Shown: piece after piece, positions 1,651-7,600 of the stretch | How positions within the stretch are numbered: the first letter of the stretch is position 1 | Layout of the letters: each line of letters starts with the position of its first letter | NCBI RefSeq assembly: GCF_055900595.2 | Contig: NZ_CM148325.1 | DNA: 64,000 nucleotides | Strand: one strand, 5' to 3' | Position numbers and translations under genes: made by a program | Notes under the pieces: generated by a model | Told to the model about the DNA's origin: nothing | Databases searched by the model: none | The model's input: only the letters and a program-made list of their open reading frames with translations

Positions 1651-2173
1651 ACGAACTCCTGGCAGACATTTGTTTATCTGCAAAGTAATATTGATATTGC
1701 TGACGATACGCATGCTTGAAAGCAATAGCTTTTTCTATAAGCTCGTCAGTCTCACGTTCCACAACAGATGGATCCGCAAAAAGCAGCCCGGACTCCACCA
1801 CATCGCCATATTCTTTGTTTAACCCGGCGATCATGTACGTAATGCTTTTTCCGTCAGTAATTTCACAATACAACCTGAAATCGCTGATCCGGATAGCCTC
1901 CATAATTGCCGGAATCAGCGCCGTGAATTTTTCCCGCTTATCCCTGGTGTCGATAGCTTTCCAGCGTTCGAATATCTTCACCCGGTTAACGCCCAGCGCC
2001 CGTTGATCAACCTCGCCATCATTAAACGTGACGCGTTGAACATCGATGTTCGGGCGTTCTTTCAGAGCCCAGAATGCTTCCGTGATTAATATCGTCGCCT
2101 GCTCCTGTGTCATTCCTGGTCGGCATACCCAGGCATCCAGAGCCTCACAAACCTGTTCAGGGGTGATTTTCAT
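1622..2173 (-). CDS. YdaT-like protein (Rac prophage ydaT family), downstream of cro-like gene
   Basis: 183-aa ORF; N-terminus MKITPEQVCEALDAW resembles Rac YdaT; overlaps the cro-like stop and the O-like start. Confidence 0.5.
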   Translation of the reverse strand: MKITPEQVCEALDAWVCRPGMTQEQATILITEAFWALKERPNIDVQRVTFNDGEVDQRALGVNRVKIFERWKAIDTRDKREKFTALIPAIMEAIRISDFRLYCEITDGKSITYMIAGLNKEYGDVVESGLLFADPSVVERETDELIEKAIAFKHAYRQQYQYYFADKQMSARSSYEHRCTTMG

Positions 2174-2384
2174 TGTTCAACCGCCCCGCCCGCTTCGTCT
2201 TACGATATTCGTCATAAACTTTGGGGTCGTACTGAAGTTCCCCGCCAGATGCCTCTTGCAGGCGCATCGCGCGACCTTCAGGAACCAGTTCTCCCCATTG
2301 AGAAACAGCAGATGGATCAACACCAGCAGCTTTCGCTACTTTGGCTTTCGTCCCATAAAAATTAATTACGTCTGATTTAAACAT
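2157..2384 (-). CDS. Cro/YdaS-like HTH DNA-binding protein
   Basis: ATG at 2384 with GGAGGGG RBS; small HTH protein (AKVAKAAGVDPSAVSQW) divergent from the repressor gene. Confidence 0.6.
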   Translation of the reverse strand: MFKSDVINFYGTKAKVAKAAGVDPSAVSQWGELVPEGRAMRLQEASGGELQYDPKVYDEYRKTKRAGRLNNENHP

Positions 2385-2461
2385 CACCCCTCCAAAGTTG
2401 AGTTTTCTCAATGGTAATCACTCAAGGAATCTCAAGCCAAGGGTTATTAAGATATCTAAAT
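2385..2461. promoter_or_regulatory. Divergent immunity promoter/operator region (OR-like)
   Basis: 77-bp gap between divergent cro-like and CI-like starts; palindrome TTGAGTTTTCTCAA at 2398-2411 plus repeated CTCAAG half-sites at 2421-2436. Confidence 0.4.
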
Positions 2462-2869
2462 ATGAACGAGAAAACTTTAGGTCAACGAATTAGAGAAAGA
2501 CGCAAACAGGTTGGTTTAAGTCAAAACGATTTAAGCAAAGCTGCTGGCGTATCTGGCTCATCAATTTCACTATGGGAAAGCGACCATACAGCCCCGCGCG
2601 GGCAAAATTTGCATCGCCTGGCTGAGGTATTGCAATGTTCACCAACTTGGATACTGTTTGGTGACGAGGATAAAACACCAGATCCACCAGTTGCACTCAA
2701 CAGCGCCTTAGACTTATCGGAAGATGAGTTGGAGATGTTGCGATTGTATCGCGCACTTCCAAAATCAGAGCAGCAAGCACAAATCAGCGAACTCCGTGCC
2801 CGCGTTGAGAATTTTAATCGCCTATTCACCGAGCTACTAGAAGCTCGCAAACGTAACAAACATCAATAA
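2462..2869 (+). CDS. CI-like phage repressor, XRE-family HTH, no S24 peptidase domain
   Basis: HTH motif GLSQNDLSKAAGVSGSSISLWE; 135 aa; C-terminal helical region only; divergent from cro-like gene. Confidence 0.65.
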   Translation: MNEKTLGQRIRERRKQVGLSQNDLSKAAGVSGSSISLWESDHTAPRGQNLHRLAEVLQCSPTWILFGDEDKTPDPPVALNSALDLSEDELEMLRLYRALPKSEQQAQISELRARVENFNRLFTELLEARKRNKHQ

Positions 2870-2982: not shown

Positions 2983-3063
2983 ACCATCCATCAAGACACC
3001 GCACGGTGTTCTCAGCAAACAGTTCCGCTACCCCGGCGTTAAGGGGAAACAGAGGATTTCTCA

Positions 3064-3420
3064 GTGGGCGAAGTCAAACATCAGAATGGAAGGCATCCCG
3101 GGATCGGCAAAGAAGCAGCAATGGCGCTTTATATTGACATCAGCGCCATTGCCGGACAGGTAAGAATTATCAGAGCGGTAACTAAGCGGTATGTGCCTTT
3201 ACTTCAGAAAGGCTCCGGTGATTACACCGAAGATATTGTCAACGATTTCCTCATCGAATTGCGAGGACTCATCTTCAGTTACAAGGTGACCACAATTTTT
3301 GCAGATGGCTCCCGCGAAACTGTCAGAGCCCTGCGGCTTAAAGGATGTGTCGAAGACTTCGCCACCACATTCTGGGCAAGAAAACTTGATTGTATTCATA
3401 ACCAATTTCCTCTCGGGTAA
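3064..3420 (+). CDS. Hypothetical protein, first ORF downstream of candidate PL (N-gene position); mutually exclusive with the antisense ORF 3199-3399
   Basis: GTG start with AGAGGA RBS 7 nt upstream; 118 aa; orientation fits the rightward early operon; no recognisable family. Confidence 0.35.
   Translation: MGEVKHQNGRHPGIGKEAAMALYIDISAIAGQVRIIRAVTKRYVPLLQKGSGDYTEDIVNDFLIELRGLIFSYKVTTIFADGSRETVRALRLKGCVEDFATTFWARKLDCIHNQFPLG
3199..3399 (-). CDS. Small zinc-ribbon protein (CPECGG...CKNCGH), candidate moron; mutually exclusive with 3064-3420
   Basis: ATG at 3399 with AGAGGA RBS 8 nt upstream; two CxxC pairs 17 residues apart; 66 aa. Confidence 0.4.
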   Translation of the reverse strand: MNTIKFSCPECGGEVFDTSFKPQGSDSFAGAICKNCGHLVTEDESSQFDEEIVDNIFGVITGAFLK

Positions 3421-4016
3421 CAGACCCCTCAGAGGATACCACCTCGCCTGACGTGGTTAAAAGCAGGCACACAACACGAAAGCGCACGGCGAGGTAGCTG
3501 GTTCATATATAGCCTGTCGTTAAATTTTCGTCGACCGTGCGCTTCCGGTTGTGGCACTCCGCGAAATGGCGCGGCGGTAAGCATGGCGGGGTTCCCTTCC
3601 CCTTGAGGACACCGGGTTGTCAGGTTGACCATGCGCCTGAGTGACAACCCCGCTGCAACGCCCTCTGTTATCAATTTTCTGGTGACGTTTGGCGGTATCA
3701 GTTTTACTCCGTGACTGCTCTGCCGCCCTTTTTAAAGTGAATTTTGTGATGTGGTGAATGCGGCTCAGCGCACGCGGAACAGTTAAAACCAAAAACAGAG
3801 TTATGGGTGGATTCTCTGTATCCGGCGTTAATTGTTAACTGGTTAACGTCACCTGGAGGCACCTGGCACCGCATCAACAAAGTTCACTTCGGTGATGAAA
3901 GGTAAGAGAAAATGTTGAATGTAGCTATTGAAAACCAGTACGGGTGGAATTATAGTGCACCTGCACCTCATAAAACGGGTGCCGGGCGTGGAAACCCGAA
4001 AGTTACTCGAGCGCAT

Positions 4017-4039
4017 AACCGCGCCGAAGCGGTTTTTTT
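4017..4039 (+). terminator. Candidate rho-independent terminator upstream of the Rha gene
   Basis: AACCGC-GCCGAA-GCGGTT hairpin followed by TTTTT. Confidence 0.4.
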
Positions 4040-4208
4040 ATGCGTAATGCACAGCCACATTCAGATAATGGTGGGGCGTGCAGGGCAGCTGCAAGGCTGG
4101 CCGGGTTCTCGAGTGACCGGTATTTCCACCCCTGTACGTCTCGCCACCCTTATGGTCGTGGAAAGCCTCGGTGGTGAGTTAATTAACTTAACACTTGAGG
4201 ATGCCATC

Positions 4209-4760
4209 ATGGCTACTACCCTTACCCTTTCTCACCCTGACGTAACCATTGAAAATGGTCGCGCTGTCACTACGTCTATTGCGATCGCAGAATTCTTCGG
4301 CAAGCAGCATCACCATGTTGTTCAAAAAATAGAGGCCCTCGAATGTTCTGAACGCTTTTTAACCAGCAACTTTTCGCGGGTTAAATTCGAGCACCGTGGC
4401 AATACCTACAATGCCTACCAAATCACCAAAAACGGCTTCGTTTTCCTGGTGATGGGCTTCACCGGCAAAAAGGCCGCTGCATTCAAGGAAGCCTACATTG
4501 CCGAGTTCGACCGCATGGAGGAAGAACTGCGCCGGAATAACACCACACCCGCTGACAAAATAATCCCGGGTGATGGCCGCACCCTGGTTATCCGCTTCGA
4601 CGAACACGGCTACATCAAATTCACCGAAACCGTTCCTGATGGCGCACTGGTCTGTACTCTGGATACTTTCCGTTTTTATCTGGAAAAGCAGGGATGGACT
4701 CTCATAAACCGGGGCGCAATTAAAAATATGACCGTCGAGCAGTTGCTGAGTATTAAATAG
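4209..4760 (+). CDS. Phage regulatory protein, Rha family (antirepressor-like)
   Basis: N-terminus TTSIAIAEFFGKQHHHVVQKI matches Rha-domain signature; GAGGA RBS before ATG 4209; in-frame ORF is open upstream to 3912, so the start is uncertain. Confidence 0.6.
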   Translation: MATTLTLSHPDVTIENGRAVTTSIAIAEFFGKQHHHVVQKIEALECSERFLTSNFSRVKFEHRGNTYNAYQITKNGFVFLVMGFTGKKAAAFKEAYIAEFDRMEEELRRNNTTPADKIIPGDGRTLVIRFDEHGYIKFTETVPDGALVCTLDTFRFYLEKQGWTLINRGAIKNMTVEQLLSIK

Positions 4761-5146: not shown

Positions 5147-7600
5147 ATGAGCACTGATAAAGAAACTTTTGCGCTATATTGCGAAGCTAAAAATGACAAA
5201 GTCAGAAAACGCCTTGGGATTAAAGGTGGTTTTTACTGGACTACAGCAAAAAAATTATCTGTTGCCATCTCCCGCTGCATTACCGCAATGGATGATAACG
5301 ATTATGATGAAGACGACTTTAAAAAACCTGTTCGCGTCCATTTGCCCGTTGTTGATGACCTTCCACCGGAAGGCGTGTTTGATACCGAATTCTGTAACCG
5401 GTATGAAAAAGGCGGCGAAGATGGCATCACAATGATATTTATCGCGCCTCCGCCATCCGCGCAGGACAAACCAGCCAGCACTGACAACACCAATGTTAAT
5501 GGCGAAGACATGACTGAGATTGAGGAGAATATGCTTCTGCCGGTTTCAGGTCAGATTCTGCCTGTTCGCTGGCTGGCGCAACACAGCGGCGAAAAACCAG
5601 TAACGCACGTTTCGCGGGATGAACTGCGCTCATTACATAACGCACAGGAAGAAAAACTTCCCGCCGTTACCGCGCTGGCCATCTCAAATAAAGCAGCGCA
5701 ACTCGAACCGCTGGAGATTCGGGATTTGTACAAACTGGTGCGGGACACTGACAAAGTTTTTCCCGCCCCCGTAAATTCAGACCTGGGACTGATGACCTCC
5801 TTCATCGAAGCATACCTGGACGCTGACTACACTGATCGTGGTCTGCTTACAAAAGAGTGGATGAAAGGAAATCGTGTTTCTCGCATCAGTCGCACACCAT
5901 CCGGCGCTAACGCTGGCGGCGGTATTCTTACCGATCGCGGCGAAGGTTTTGTGCATGATAATGCGTCAATGGCATTCGATGTTGCTACAGGAAAACTGGC
6001 TCGTTCGATGGATGTGGATATTTACAACATGCATCCTTCACATACCAGACGTGTTAACGAAATTATCGCAGAAAATGATCCCTGTTTCTCCGTCTTCCTT
6101 AAGGCTTTTCTGAACATGCCAGGCGGGATGGATTATTCCCGCGCCATCGTGGTTGCCTCCGTGAAAGAAGCACCGGTTGGTATAGAGGCTATGCCCCACC
6201 GCGTCACCGAATACCTGAATAAAGTGCTGACCGAAACCGATCATGCCAACCCTGATCCGGAAATCGTGGATATTGCCTGCGGTCGTTCCTCTGCCCCAAT
6301 GCCGCAGCGTGTAACAGAAGAAGGAAAACAGGATGATGAAGAAAAACCGCAACCGTCTGGCGCAATGGCAGATGAACAGCCAACGACTGAAACAGTGGAA
6401 CCGGATACAACTGAACATCATCCGGACACGCAGCCGCTGGATGCTCAGCCGCAGGTGAATTCTGTTGATGCGAAATATCAGAAACTGCGGGCAGAACTCC
6501 ATGAATCCCGGAAAAACATTCCGCCCCAAAATCCTGTCGACGAAGACAAATTGCTGGCAACCTCTGGCGGAGAATTTGCTGAAGGGATTAGCGACCCGAA
6601 TGATCCGAAATGGGTGAAGGGGATTGAAACCCGCGATTCTGTGAACCAGAACCAGCAAGAATCGGAACAGAACGACCAGAAAGCGGAAAAAAACAGCCAA
6701 AATGCGTTACAAAACGAGCCAGAAACGAAACAATCCGAACCAGTAGCGCAACAGGAACCGGAAAAAGTCTGCACCATCTGCGGTCAGAGCGGTGTCGGCA
6801 ACTGTCCTGATTGTGGCGTGGTGATGGGCGACGCAACATACCAGGAAATGTTCGATGAAGATAATCAGCCTGAAGTTCAGGAAAATGATCCAGAGGAAAT
6901 GGAAGGCTCTGCGCATCAGAACAAGGAGAACTCTGGCGGCAATCAGCATCATGCCAGCGATAGTGAAACTGGCGAGACGGCAAATCCCTTAATTAAGATA
7001 ACCAGTCATCACAAATATAAGTCCACAAGCAAAACGTGGTATCACCTGATGATCGACCTTGAAACAATGGGAACCAACACCAATGCACCCATAGTAGTTA
7101 TTGGTGCGGTTTTCTTCGACCCGGAAACAGGGGAAATCGGGCCGGTATTTTATATCGTTATCAGCCTGACTGACGCAATGAATACAGGGGCTGTTCCTGA
7201 TGGTGGCACCATCGAATGGTGGCTGAAGCAGTCCAGCGAAGCCAGAGCTGCCATTTTAACTGACCAGGTAAAAATGAAAGATGCCCTTTTGCGTTTTCGG
7301 GAATTCGTCAATGAACACTCTGATGAAAAATTCGTTCAGGTGTGGGGTAATGGCGCAACGTTCGATAACGCAATTTTGCGCACCTCATACGAACGTCTGG
7401 ACATCCCCTGTCCGTGGCATTACAGCAACGATCGTGATGTACGCACAATCGTTGAGATGGGGAAAATCACAGACTTCAATGCCAGAAGCGTAATTCCATT
7501 CGAAGGCGTGCGCCATAATGCTCTGGATGACGCTCTTCACCAGGCAAAATACGTAACAGCCGCTATACAAAAACTGATCCCGAATCAGGCTGATTTTTAA
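5147..7600 (+). CDS. Exonuclease: RecE (exonuclease VIII) N-terminal-region homolog fused to a C-terminal DnaQ-like DEDDh 3-prime-5-prime exonuclease domain
   Basis: 817 aa; middle region ([19 protein letters not shown]...[43 protein letters not shown]) matches the RecE N-terminal part as recalled; C-terminus has [15 protein letters not shown] and HNALDDA motifs; acidic linker with CTICG-x7-CPDCG zinc-ribbon-like motif. Confidence 0.75.

Follow-up and report, generated by a model that had tools for sequence, protein, structure and literature searches.

Bacteria rarely encode two conserved proteins in the same 200 bases, and standard annotation would list just one of the two; does such a pair exist at positions 3064-3420 of the DNA analysed here? 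The DNA is a 64,000-nt stretch of contig NZ_CM148325.1 (NCBI RefSeq assembly GCF_055900595.2), called the window below, whose left end belongs to a lambdoid prophage similar to Qin/dicBF and forms its immunity and early region, and at these positions a plus-strand open reading frame (ORF) contains the whole of a minus-strand ORF. An initial annotation, made from the letters of the sequence, had described the two as mutually exclusive. Both ORFs lie where that annotation placed them, each with the credible start signal it described, a Shine-Dalgarno (SD) sequence and start codon kept across lineages, while the notion that only one of the two is a real gene finds no support, each frame carrying its own selection signal. 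We consider it reasonably probable that the locus is a genuine conserved antisense overlapping gene pair, and we take the pair to be more than chance because both ORFs are intact in eight diverged lineages.

Two codon-aligned reading frames on opposite strands

The plus ORF runs from GTG 3064 to TAA 3418-3420 and encodes 118 aa, with the SD sequence AGAGGA at 3051-3056, 7 nt 5′ of the GTG; the alternative start ATG 3121, which is the RefSeq and PHROG start, gives 99 aa. The minus ORF runs from ATG 3399-3397 to TAA 3201-3199 (66 aa), with the SD sequence GAGAGGA at 3414-3408, 8 nt before ATG 3399, and is lengthened to TTG 3405 by the ORF listing program. It lies entirely within the plus ORF and is codon-aligned with it (3397-3064 = 333), plus position 1 being minus position 3 and the second positions being shared. 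The codon-aligned antisense frame is the one in which long shadow ORFs arise most easily, so the coexistence of both ORFs by itself proves little. In the overlap, only TTA, CTA and TCA codons of the minus gene produce plus stops, and given the minus protein and random synonymous codons the probability that the plus frame is open is 0.19-0.42 per lineage. GC content over 3000-3499 (0.455-0.525) is not distinct from that of the neighbouring sequence and shows no compositional discontinuity. Two single-base changes separate the frames, A3325T being nonsense in plus and synonymous in minus, and C3270A nonsense in minus and synonymous in plus; such changes make a dual-coding claim directly testable. 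A3325T converts plus AGA to TGA and minus TCT to TCA, still Ser, whereas C3270A converts minus GAG to TAG, as in the natural L075 allele, and plus CTC to CTA, still Leu.

Co-inheritance of both frames across lineages

Searches by protein, profile and DNA motif turned up nine lineages, eight of them intact and one degenerate (individual loci carry L numbers below), spread over at least five enterobacterial genera. The E. coli-type lineage comprises many variants with 85-100% nucleotide identity, and the element is present in 936 of 5,426 complete E. coli genomes, including that of O157:H7 EDL933, where it occupies 2344142-2344498 of NZ_CP008957; E. coli copies number ~1,400. The others are Klebsiella/Citrobacter (L083 and L084), a group of viral contigs (L077, L079 and L093-L111) whose minus protein matches RefSeq proteins of Enterobacter hormaechei and Citrobacter freundii (P0010 and P0009), and further lineages represented by L112, L113/L114, Serratia sp. 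L9 (L205), L240 and the degenerate L206. Identity to the window drops to 44% for the minus protein and to about 35-40% for the plus protein. Both ORFs are open in every intact lineage, and the overlap comprises 66 codons without an indel in lineages with full-length copies; that of the Serratia copy L205 comprises 62 codons, with a deletion in the C-terminal tail. The plus ORF reaches at least 26 codons past the minus stop and is open in all 55 unique full-length sequences examined, in addition to the eight deep lineages. L083, L084, L077, L205 and L240 were found via the minus protein or a minus-motif DNA scan, and because they were thus unselected for the plus ORF, their open plus frame is not a search artefact. 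The DNA-motif scan of metagenomes returned 32 stretches, one of them a true relative (L240); the viral motif scan yielded false positives and one frameshifted copy and no new deep lineage, and a one-genome-per-species collection gave no match by peptide patterns or by a conserved 27-mer. Frameshifts in L116, L138 and L210 damage both ORFs.

Purifying selection on the minus frame

A homology search of both translations, which the initial annotation had put forward as a check, placed each protein in a family. The minus protein is NCBIfam NF047912 (ECs_2282_CxxC; 57.1 bits against a cutoff of 37, E = 1.2e-15), with residues 4-56 aligned to profile positions 1-53 of 60, and the plus protein is phrog_21318 (205.1 bits, E = 2.2e-61), with residues 20-117 on profile positions 1-98 of 99; for neither did we find a Pfam family at E <= 1e-5, a relative in the Protein Data Bank or a known fold. 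The minus protein consists of a putative Zn-binding ribbon (two CxxC pairs) and an acidic C-terminal helix, and its AlphaFold2 (AF2) model places short beta elements around the cysteines, the mean predicted local distance difference test (pLDDT) score being only 58.7. The earlier argument that a cysteine motif favours the minus ORF holds, the family being a curated Zn-ribbon family and C8, C11, C33 and C36 being invariant in nine lineages, although the spacing then given (C-x2-C-x17-C-x2-C) was wrong and is in fact C8-x2-C11-x21-C33-x2-C36.

Several readouts locate the constraint in this frame. Three of the four cysteines toggle between TGT and TGC, which switches the plus residue between Thr and Ala, and the fourth is invariant in both frames; overall, 11 of 49 core codons, including those three cysteines, are invariant in the minus frame yet variable in the plus frame. 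Read in the plus frame, the cysteine sites are always RCA: the third base, four-fold degenerate in these codons, is held at A at all four sites in all nine lineages. In a set of 49 unique sequences of the E. coli type, 28/7/15 of 66 overlap sites segregate at plus positions 1/2/3, and variation is therefore concentrated at minus third positions; parsimony events on the tree are distributed over the same positions as 37/11/23 and 51/12/27 in the two halves of the overlap, and a rough ratio of nonsynonymous to synonymous change (dN/dS), hand-estimated from parsimony counts, is ~0.3 for the minus and ~0.7-0.8 for the plus frame. In a mirror test that fixed the plus protein and drew its synonymous codons at random, the observed minus identity of 29-36 compared with a null of 15-18 ± 3 (z ~6-7). 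The minus SD (AGGAGG, AAGGAA or AGAAGG) stands at 6-9 nt in every lineage, and it and ~75 nt upstream are conserved although outside the plus ORF. Across the whole overlap, purifying selection acts on the minus frame.

These results bear on the possibility that the plus ORF is the only gene and that the minus ORF, with its cysteine pattern, is an accidental antisense by-product. Such an account gains from the plus ORF never being interrupted while natural nonsense alleles of the minus ORF exist (see below), from operon synteny, and from some runs of the Prokaryotic Genome Annotation Pipeline (PGAP) that annotate the plus ORF alone. It is hard to square with the fixed A of the plus RCA codons, with within-lineage variation that peaks at plus first positions, with a minus identity 6-7 standard deviations above the plus-protein prediction, or with the conservation, beyond the limits of the plus ORF, of the SD, ATG and upstream motif of the minus gene, and we give it hardly any credence.

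Several other resemblances of the two proteins were set aside. The match of the minus protein to the Lar family restriction alleviation protein (TIGR03655) reached 16.2 bits (E = 0.01) against a cutoff of 39.6, the resemblance being that of a CPxCG-type ribbon only, and matches to DUF5795 (i-E 7.5e-5), phrog_4852 (E 1.5e-9) and PADLOC PDC-M14A (E 0.0015) reflect the ribbon motif only and are leads rather than assignments. A type II toxin-antitoxin (TA) pair was also rejected, as neither a RelE/ParE fold in the ~100-aa partner nor an MqsA/YgiT profile match in the Zn-ribbon partner was found.

The plus frame codes for protein outside the overlap

Downstream of the minus stop codon, the plus-strand segment 3121-3198 (region B) is covered by the plus ORF only, and a coding signal in it can be attributed to one frame because it lies outside the minus ORF. 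Over six deep lineages this segment holds no stop in the plus frame, compared with 4-17 in each of the other five frames, and the probability of finding no stop in any lineage is 0.004. Its mean pairwise BLOSUM62 score is 50.7 against a column-permutation null of 9.5 ± 6.7, a value reached by none of 5,000 permutations. Variation peaks at third codon positions (p-distances of 0.435/0.395/0.593 for positions 1/2/3; parsimony events 36/26/53), and the sole indel removes or adds one complete codon, in L113. In every lineage a strong SD with a start codon is found 0-32 codons 5′ of a conserved 'TL..D.S' motif, in otherwise non-homologous sequence, for example AGGAG-5-ATG in L083, AGGAGG-4-ATG in L112 and AAGGGG-6-ATG in L205. 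The plus frame is protein-coding outside the overlap, and the AF2 model of its product has a compact helix-helix-strand-strand-helix fold (mean pLDDT 68.4).

The 5′-most part of the plus ORF behaves differently from region B. Positions 3064-3120, an N-terminal extension or 5′ leader, are variable and without codon periodicity; their p-distance to diverged lineages (0.60-0.77) is about random, they have no homology outside the E. coli-type lineage, and a 1-nt deletion moves GTG 3064 out of frame in L066/L068. A perfect 11-bp inverted repeat, GCAATGGCGCT / AGCGCCATTGC, spans 3118-3152 and contains ATG 3121. In minus-strand RNA the repeat gives a 13-bp hairpin followed by CUUCUUUG, and the 116-nt minus-strand RNA that includes it (3215-3100) has a minimum free energy of -30.3 kcal/mol (z = -2.0). 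The hairpin is specific to the E. coli-type lineage and partly preserved elsewhere; it could be a terminator of the minus gene or, in plus RNA, a structure masking the start codon ATG 3121. Because ATG 3121 may be masked in this way and GTG 3064 has a good SD, we favour the view that translation in the E. coli-type lineage usually begins at GTG 3064. L077-type loci (e.g. L079 at 2995-3390, minus strand) have an N-terminal extension of their own on the plus ORF, the 32-residue MSTSANRKTIKLPAGETFAPISNKCKSCGYVE, which has its own CxxC, is conserved within the L077 group and is absent from other lineages.

Region B is also the place at which to weigh a second account, in which the minus Zn-ribbon gene alone has a function, the plus ORF being its shadow, and 3121-3198 is the 3′ untranslated region or terminator of the minus gene, or a leader of the early operon. 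Much in the overlap agrees with it: codon-position variation there has the minus signature, with the plus dN/dS as high as stated above; the per-lineage probabilities of an open plus frame mean that openness is not rare; minus synonymous sites are nearly saturated at deep divergence; and PGAP and NCBIfam name the minus protein only. The hairpin at 3118-3152 could supply the minus terminator, but it is not conserved outside the E. coli-type lineage, and a minus 3′ region or leader fits poorly with a segment that is stop-free in the plus frame only, has a similarity 6 standard deviations over its null and varies most at third positions. The recurrence of a plus SD and start in non-homologous upstream sequence likewise argues against a shadow, as does an open plus ORF in eight of eight lineages, for which we estimate a joint probability of ~1e-3 or less by multiplying the per-lineage values and discounting for shared ancestry. 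We regard this account as unlikely.

Constraint on the plus frame inside the overlap

Within the overlap, the BLOSUM similarity of the plus protein exceeded the prediction from the minus protein in seven of seven deep pairs (P <= 0.012) under two nulls, stop-free random codons and within-gene synonymous shuffling, and the excess was again seen in all seven pairs (P <= 0.024) with the fitted ancestral third-base retention (4-23%) included in the null. At single sites, nine lineages share the plus R residues opposite minus codons 22 and 25 and the plus D opposite minus codon 32, which are spelled by several codons as the minus residue varies; seven of the nine also have a plus Trp, retained in every lineage with Pro at minus codon 9 and always opposite the rare codon CCA. 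The AF2 model packs the plus N-terminal helix against the overlap-encoded part, which has a pLDDT of 70-79. No lineage has a truncated plus ORF, though minus-synonymous TCA, TTA or CTA codons would truncate it. Taken from these sequence patterns, translation of the whole plus ORF is likely, and protein-level constraint on its overlap-encoded part is probable but not proven, with moderate support. The selection that the initial annotation proposed to look for in each frame is thus found across the overlap for the minus frame and at 3121-3198 for the plus frame, the plus signal being moderate inside the overlap.

The same data allow for both ORFs being translated with only the N-terminal ~30-45 residues of the plus protein functional, the C-terminal ~70 being an unconstrained read-through tail that exists because the embedded Zn-ribbon gene happens to supply no stops. 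Strong plus constraint does lie outside the overlap, the evidence inside it is moderate and depends on the null model, and the plus stop drifts by up to 9 codons between lineages. A free tail would be expected to tolerate stops, yet no truncated plus ORF occurs in any lineage even though minus-synonymous stops would be neutral; the invariant plus R, R and D and the Trp retained through the rare CCA, despite changing minus residues, and the predicted packing of the N-terminal helix on the overlap-encoded part, also speak against it. We think a read-through tail improbable. A further argument was considered and dropped: reduced minus synonymous divergence does not serve as a clean dual-coding signature, deep same-codon frequencies being near random, and the low third-position divergence in the Zn-ribbon core comes, by our own estimate, largely from its many two-fold-degenerate residues.

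Several findings weigh against a genuine gene pair. The overlap excess mostly vanishes if 30% third-base retention is assumed, and the deep pairs on which it was measured are mutually non-independent; within the E. coli-type lineage, minus selection alone fully explains the overlap polymorphism, and at deep divergence minus synonymous sites are near saturation (same-codon z 0.3-1.6). The two ORFs never occur apart, so that neither family is independently validated. Natural minus-null alleles occur in 16 of 92 fetched loci (15 E14* and one E44*) and in at least one complete genome (loci L054-L069, L209 and L075); the share of viral-contig copies affected is ~16%. E14* is a TTC>TTA change at the equivalent of 3358-3360 that replaces plus F by L and is carried by 15 viral contigs as well as by E. 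coli 2013C-3252, and E44*, in L075, is a plus-synonymous CTC>CTA change at the equivalent of 3268-3270; the plus ORF remains open in these minus-null copies, and PGAP annotates it in place of the minus ORF where the null allele is present. Because natural nonsense alleles occur, the minus gene is dispensable, at least in prophages. The candidate promoter of the minus gene described below is weak by consensus (7/12, under the scan threshold), and in L083/L084 its TATCCT is retained without the TG. Searches of the literature, including studies of overlapping genes in enterohaemorrhagic E. coli, found neither mention of the locus nor expression data for it, and the supplements to the Zehentner et al. 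2020 preprint, searched by coordinate, did not list it either.

Candidate regulatory signals

The initial annotation had put the ORFs at the first position after a candidate PL promoter, and a sigma-70-like site does lie at 2954-2982, between the repressor gene (2411-2869) and the ORFs. This plus-strand PL-like site, TTGACC-17-TAAATT, is a consensus match only and a candidate driver of the plus ORF and of the early-left operon from DicF onward. It is flanked and overlapped by an inverted repeat (2931-2950/2962-2981) containing GAGTTTTCT. The exact 9-mer GAGTTTTCT occurs only twice in the 64 kb, at 2400 (the cro/repressor junction) and at 2934 (beside the PL-like promoter), each copy having an inverted 8-of-9 partner (regions 2400-2477 and 2931-2981); with one mismatch allowed, its window-wide count is not above chance. 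The GAGTTTTCT sites are candidate operators of the DicA-like repressor. Four lineages have promoter-like sites 5′ of the plus ORF: that of the window and those of L205, L113 and L079. Synteny favours the plus ORF, as had been argued from the window, in every context examined: it is always co-directional with the early operon, 3′ of four repressor types, lying directly or closely 3′ of a DicA-type repressor in the window, of LexA/S24-like CI in L079, L112, L113 and L114, and of helix-turn-helix (HTH)-type repressors in L205 and L240, while in L083/L084 it stands immediately after cro, at the cII position.

On the opposite strand, a candidate extended -10 element for the minus gene, TGgTATCCT, lies at 3433-3441 (minus strand). 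It precedes the ATG by 33-42 nt, beyond the end of the plus ORF, and is paired with TTTAAC at 3456-3461 (minus strand) as a weak -35. In the cross-lineage alignment TGnTATCYT stands at the same distance in the E. coli-type lineage, L077, L112, L113, L205 and L206; a standard promoter and terminator scan gave no minus-strand promoter between the minus ATG and 3800. An inverted repeat, GCCTG-N13-CAGGC, covers the -35 region (3446-3468). It is kept in L077, L112 and L205, and both arms have changed together in L113 (GCCGGG/CCCGGC). It occurs once in the window, and since 42 of 100 shuffles give at least one such repeat, its significance rests on the cross-lineage conservation. It is a possible operator, or a possible hairpin in the plus transcript.

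The initial annotation also viewed the minus ORF as an independently expressed moron. The conserved promoter-like motif fits that view; the TGnTATCYT motif upstream is under the scan threshold, only in the E. coli-type lineage is the stop followed by a hairpin, and the base composition of the minus ORF is not distinct from its flanks.

A possible expression logic

If the pair is genuine, the locus would be a compact cassette of ~400 bp (~3064-3470) that encodes two proteins on opposite strands in the same codon triplets. The plus gene would specify a soluble protein of ~95-118 aa that has no known relatives, as the first cistron from the repressor-controlled early promoter, and its product should appear upon infection or induction. 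In the lysogen, where the early promoter is silent, the minus gene would most likely be transcribed alone, from its own promoter (the extended -10 with the palindrome). The promoters would face each other, and with transcripts fully complementary over ~200 nt expression would probably be reciprocal: transcription of the early operon after induction would occlude the minus promoter, and the minus transcript in the lysogen would act as an antisense RNA against leaky early mRNA. We infer promoter activity, reciprocal expression and the biochemical roles of both proteins, as well as the expression logic itself (plus early, minus lysogenic), from the anatomy of the locus. In the sense of exclusive expression, the term 'mutually exclusive' is plausible on the same grounds. 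As guesses, the Zn-ribbon protein might serve in exclusion or regulation when expressed in the lysogen, and the plus protein might be a regulator of the early phase.

It is doubtful, though conceivable, that the cassette is an ancient, mobile, self-contained two-state switch whose opposite-strand proteins are functionally coupled. Were this so, one product might, for example, bind the promoter palindrome of the other, or the two might form a lysogeny/lytic toggle or an exclusion/counter-exclusion pair, and dual coding would be kept across enterobacterial lambdoid phages by forced co-inheritance and reciprocal expression. The first position of a repressor-controlled early operon, which in relatives contains DicF, DicB and Kil, is in any case well placed to influence prophage induction or lysogen physiology.

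Known systems and database records

The closest parallel in logic is Pseudomonas phage Fc02, in which early gene 10 overlaps the antisense, lysogen-expressed olg1 beside the repressor, and the products of both genes were shown to exclude superinfecting phages (PMC9936078). The expression logic there, an early lytic gene antisense to a lysogen gene, is the one proposed here, but Fc02 is an unrelated Mu-like phage with no sequence relation detected, and its olg1 precedes the repressor within a shared transcript. Face-to-face promoters with complementary transcripts, as proposed for the present locus, are also familiar from lambda (PRE/oop versus cro/cII), P22 (sar versus ant) and coliphage 186 (PR/PL), and at an immunity region they could make expression of the lytic and lysogenic states reciprocal. 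The antisense partner in those three systems is a non-coding RNA or a read-through transcript, whereas here it would be a conserved coding gene fully embedded in its target. In position the cassette corresponds to ydfA-ydfB of the E. coli K-12 Qin prophage, the first ORFs after the DicA-controlled promoter and before ydfC-dicF-dicB, at the head of the dicBF operon (operon order partly from PMC5069750); K-12 does not carry the cassette.

Embedded antisense coding ORFs have been described in E. coli O157:H7 (laoB, ano, asa and pop/ompA) and in Pseudomonas (P. aeruginosa olg1/olg2), and in those cases, as here, annotation pipelines suppress one partner. Those cases were reportedly found through expression data and usually comprise a young, narrowly distributed ORF in an older gene. 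The present pair differs in being known from its sequence alone, in having both partners conserved over at least five genera, in its codon-aligned frame, and in the embedded ORF being the more constrained partner. Among bacteria and their phages, few antisense coding pairs are well supported and many are contested, and most candidates rest on the expression of a young, little-conserved ORF; the evidence for this pair is of the opposite kind, namely co-inheritance over at least five genera and frame-specific conservation in each ORF.

Both ORFs are already in databases as separate uncharacterised families, and we did not find their pairing described. NF047912, named for a locus tag of E. coli O157:H7 Sakai, covers proteins with the length and CxxC...CxxC pattern of the minus ORF; the entry is a name only and does not record that every member examined sits inside a conserved opposite-strand ORF, and we found no function, structure or paper for the family. 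PHROG 21318 and the RefSeq 'hypothetical protein' of the WP_001240334 type (99 aa) match plus residues 20-117 end to end; the PHROG entry starts at ATG 3121, while the E. coli-type sequence has a better SD at GTG 3064. PGAP names the minus ORF in near-identical E. coli genomes and the plus ORF instead on others, so that identical DNA receives one ORF or the other; the plus ORF is annotated even in an O157:H7 strain that encodes, in both frames, the same products as EDL933. Through this annotation artefact, pangenome and orthology tables will split or lose one gene.

Genomic context of the cassette

Upstream of the cassette lie a Cro-like gene (2157-2411, minus strand) and the DicA/CI-type HTH repressor gene (2411-2869, plus strand). 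In several E. coli-type relatives (L087-L091 and L207, the EDL933 copy) a TA module of the PaaA2-ParE or HigB-HigA type lies between the repressor gene and the cassette, and in these TA-carrying relatives ~280-300 nt 5′ of the plus ORF co-travels with the cassette.

Downstream, the DicF small RNA (3677-3728; Rfam 76.7 bits) is followed by a DicB remnant, a Rha/antirepressor gene, kil, an exonuclease gene, xis and int. Compared with most relatives (L002 and EDL933 among them), the window is without ydfC, a gap of ~370 bp between the cassette and DicF (region ~3470-3680); just past the cassette boundary, where relatives have ydfC, there is a 13-nt inverted repeat (3477-3489 / 3535-3547, 92% complementary, arms 45 nt apart). 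DicF is intact, and dicB is a 75-nt remnant (region 3807-3881). Inside the ORF at 3912-4760, Rfam matches on the plus strand comprise isrK at 3963-4039 (67.2 bits), C4 antisense RNA at 4064-4151 (73.8 bits) and, below the gathering threshold, a c4-a1b1 targets match at 3950-4002 (24.9 bits). These matches fall in the first third of what PGAP calls, in a near-identical genome, a 282-aa 'Rha family phage regulatory protein'; they look like a c4/antirepressor arrangement of the P1 immI type, and the first ~100 codons of the annotated Rha-family coding sequence are probably RNA genes rather than protein. The 'exonuclease' ORF (817 aa, 5147-7600, plus strand) has a long acidic low-complexity middle, an internal CxxC...CxxC and a C-terminal exonuclease domain, and its domain matches in relatives are Exonuc_VIII and Rv2179c-like.

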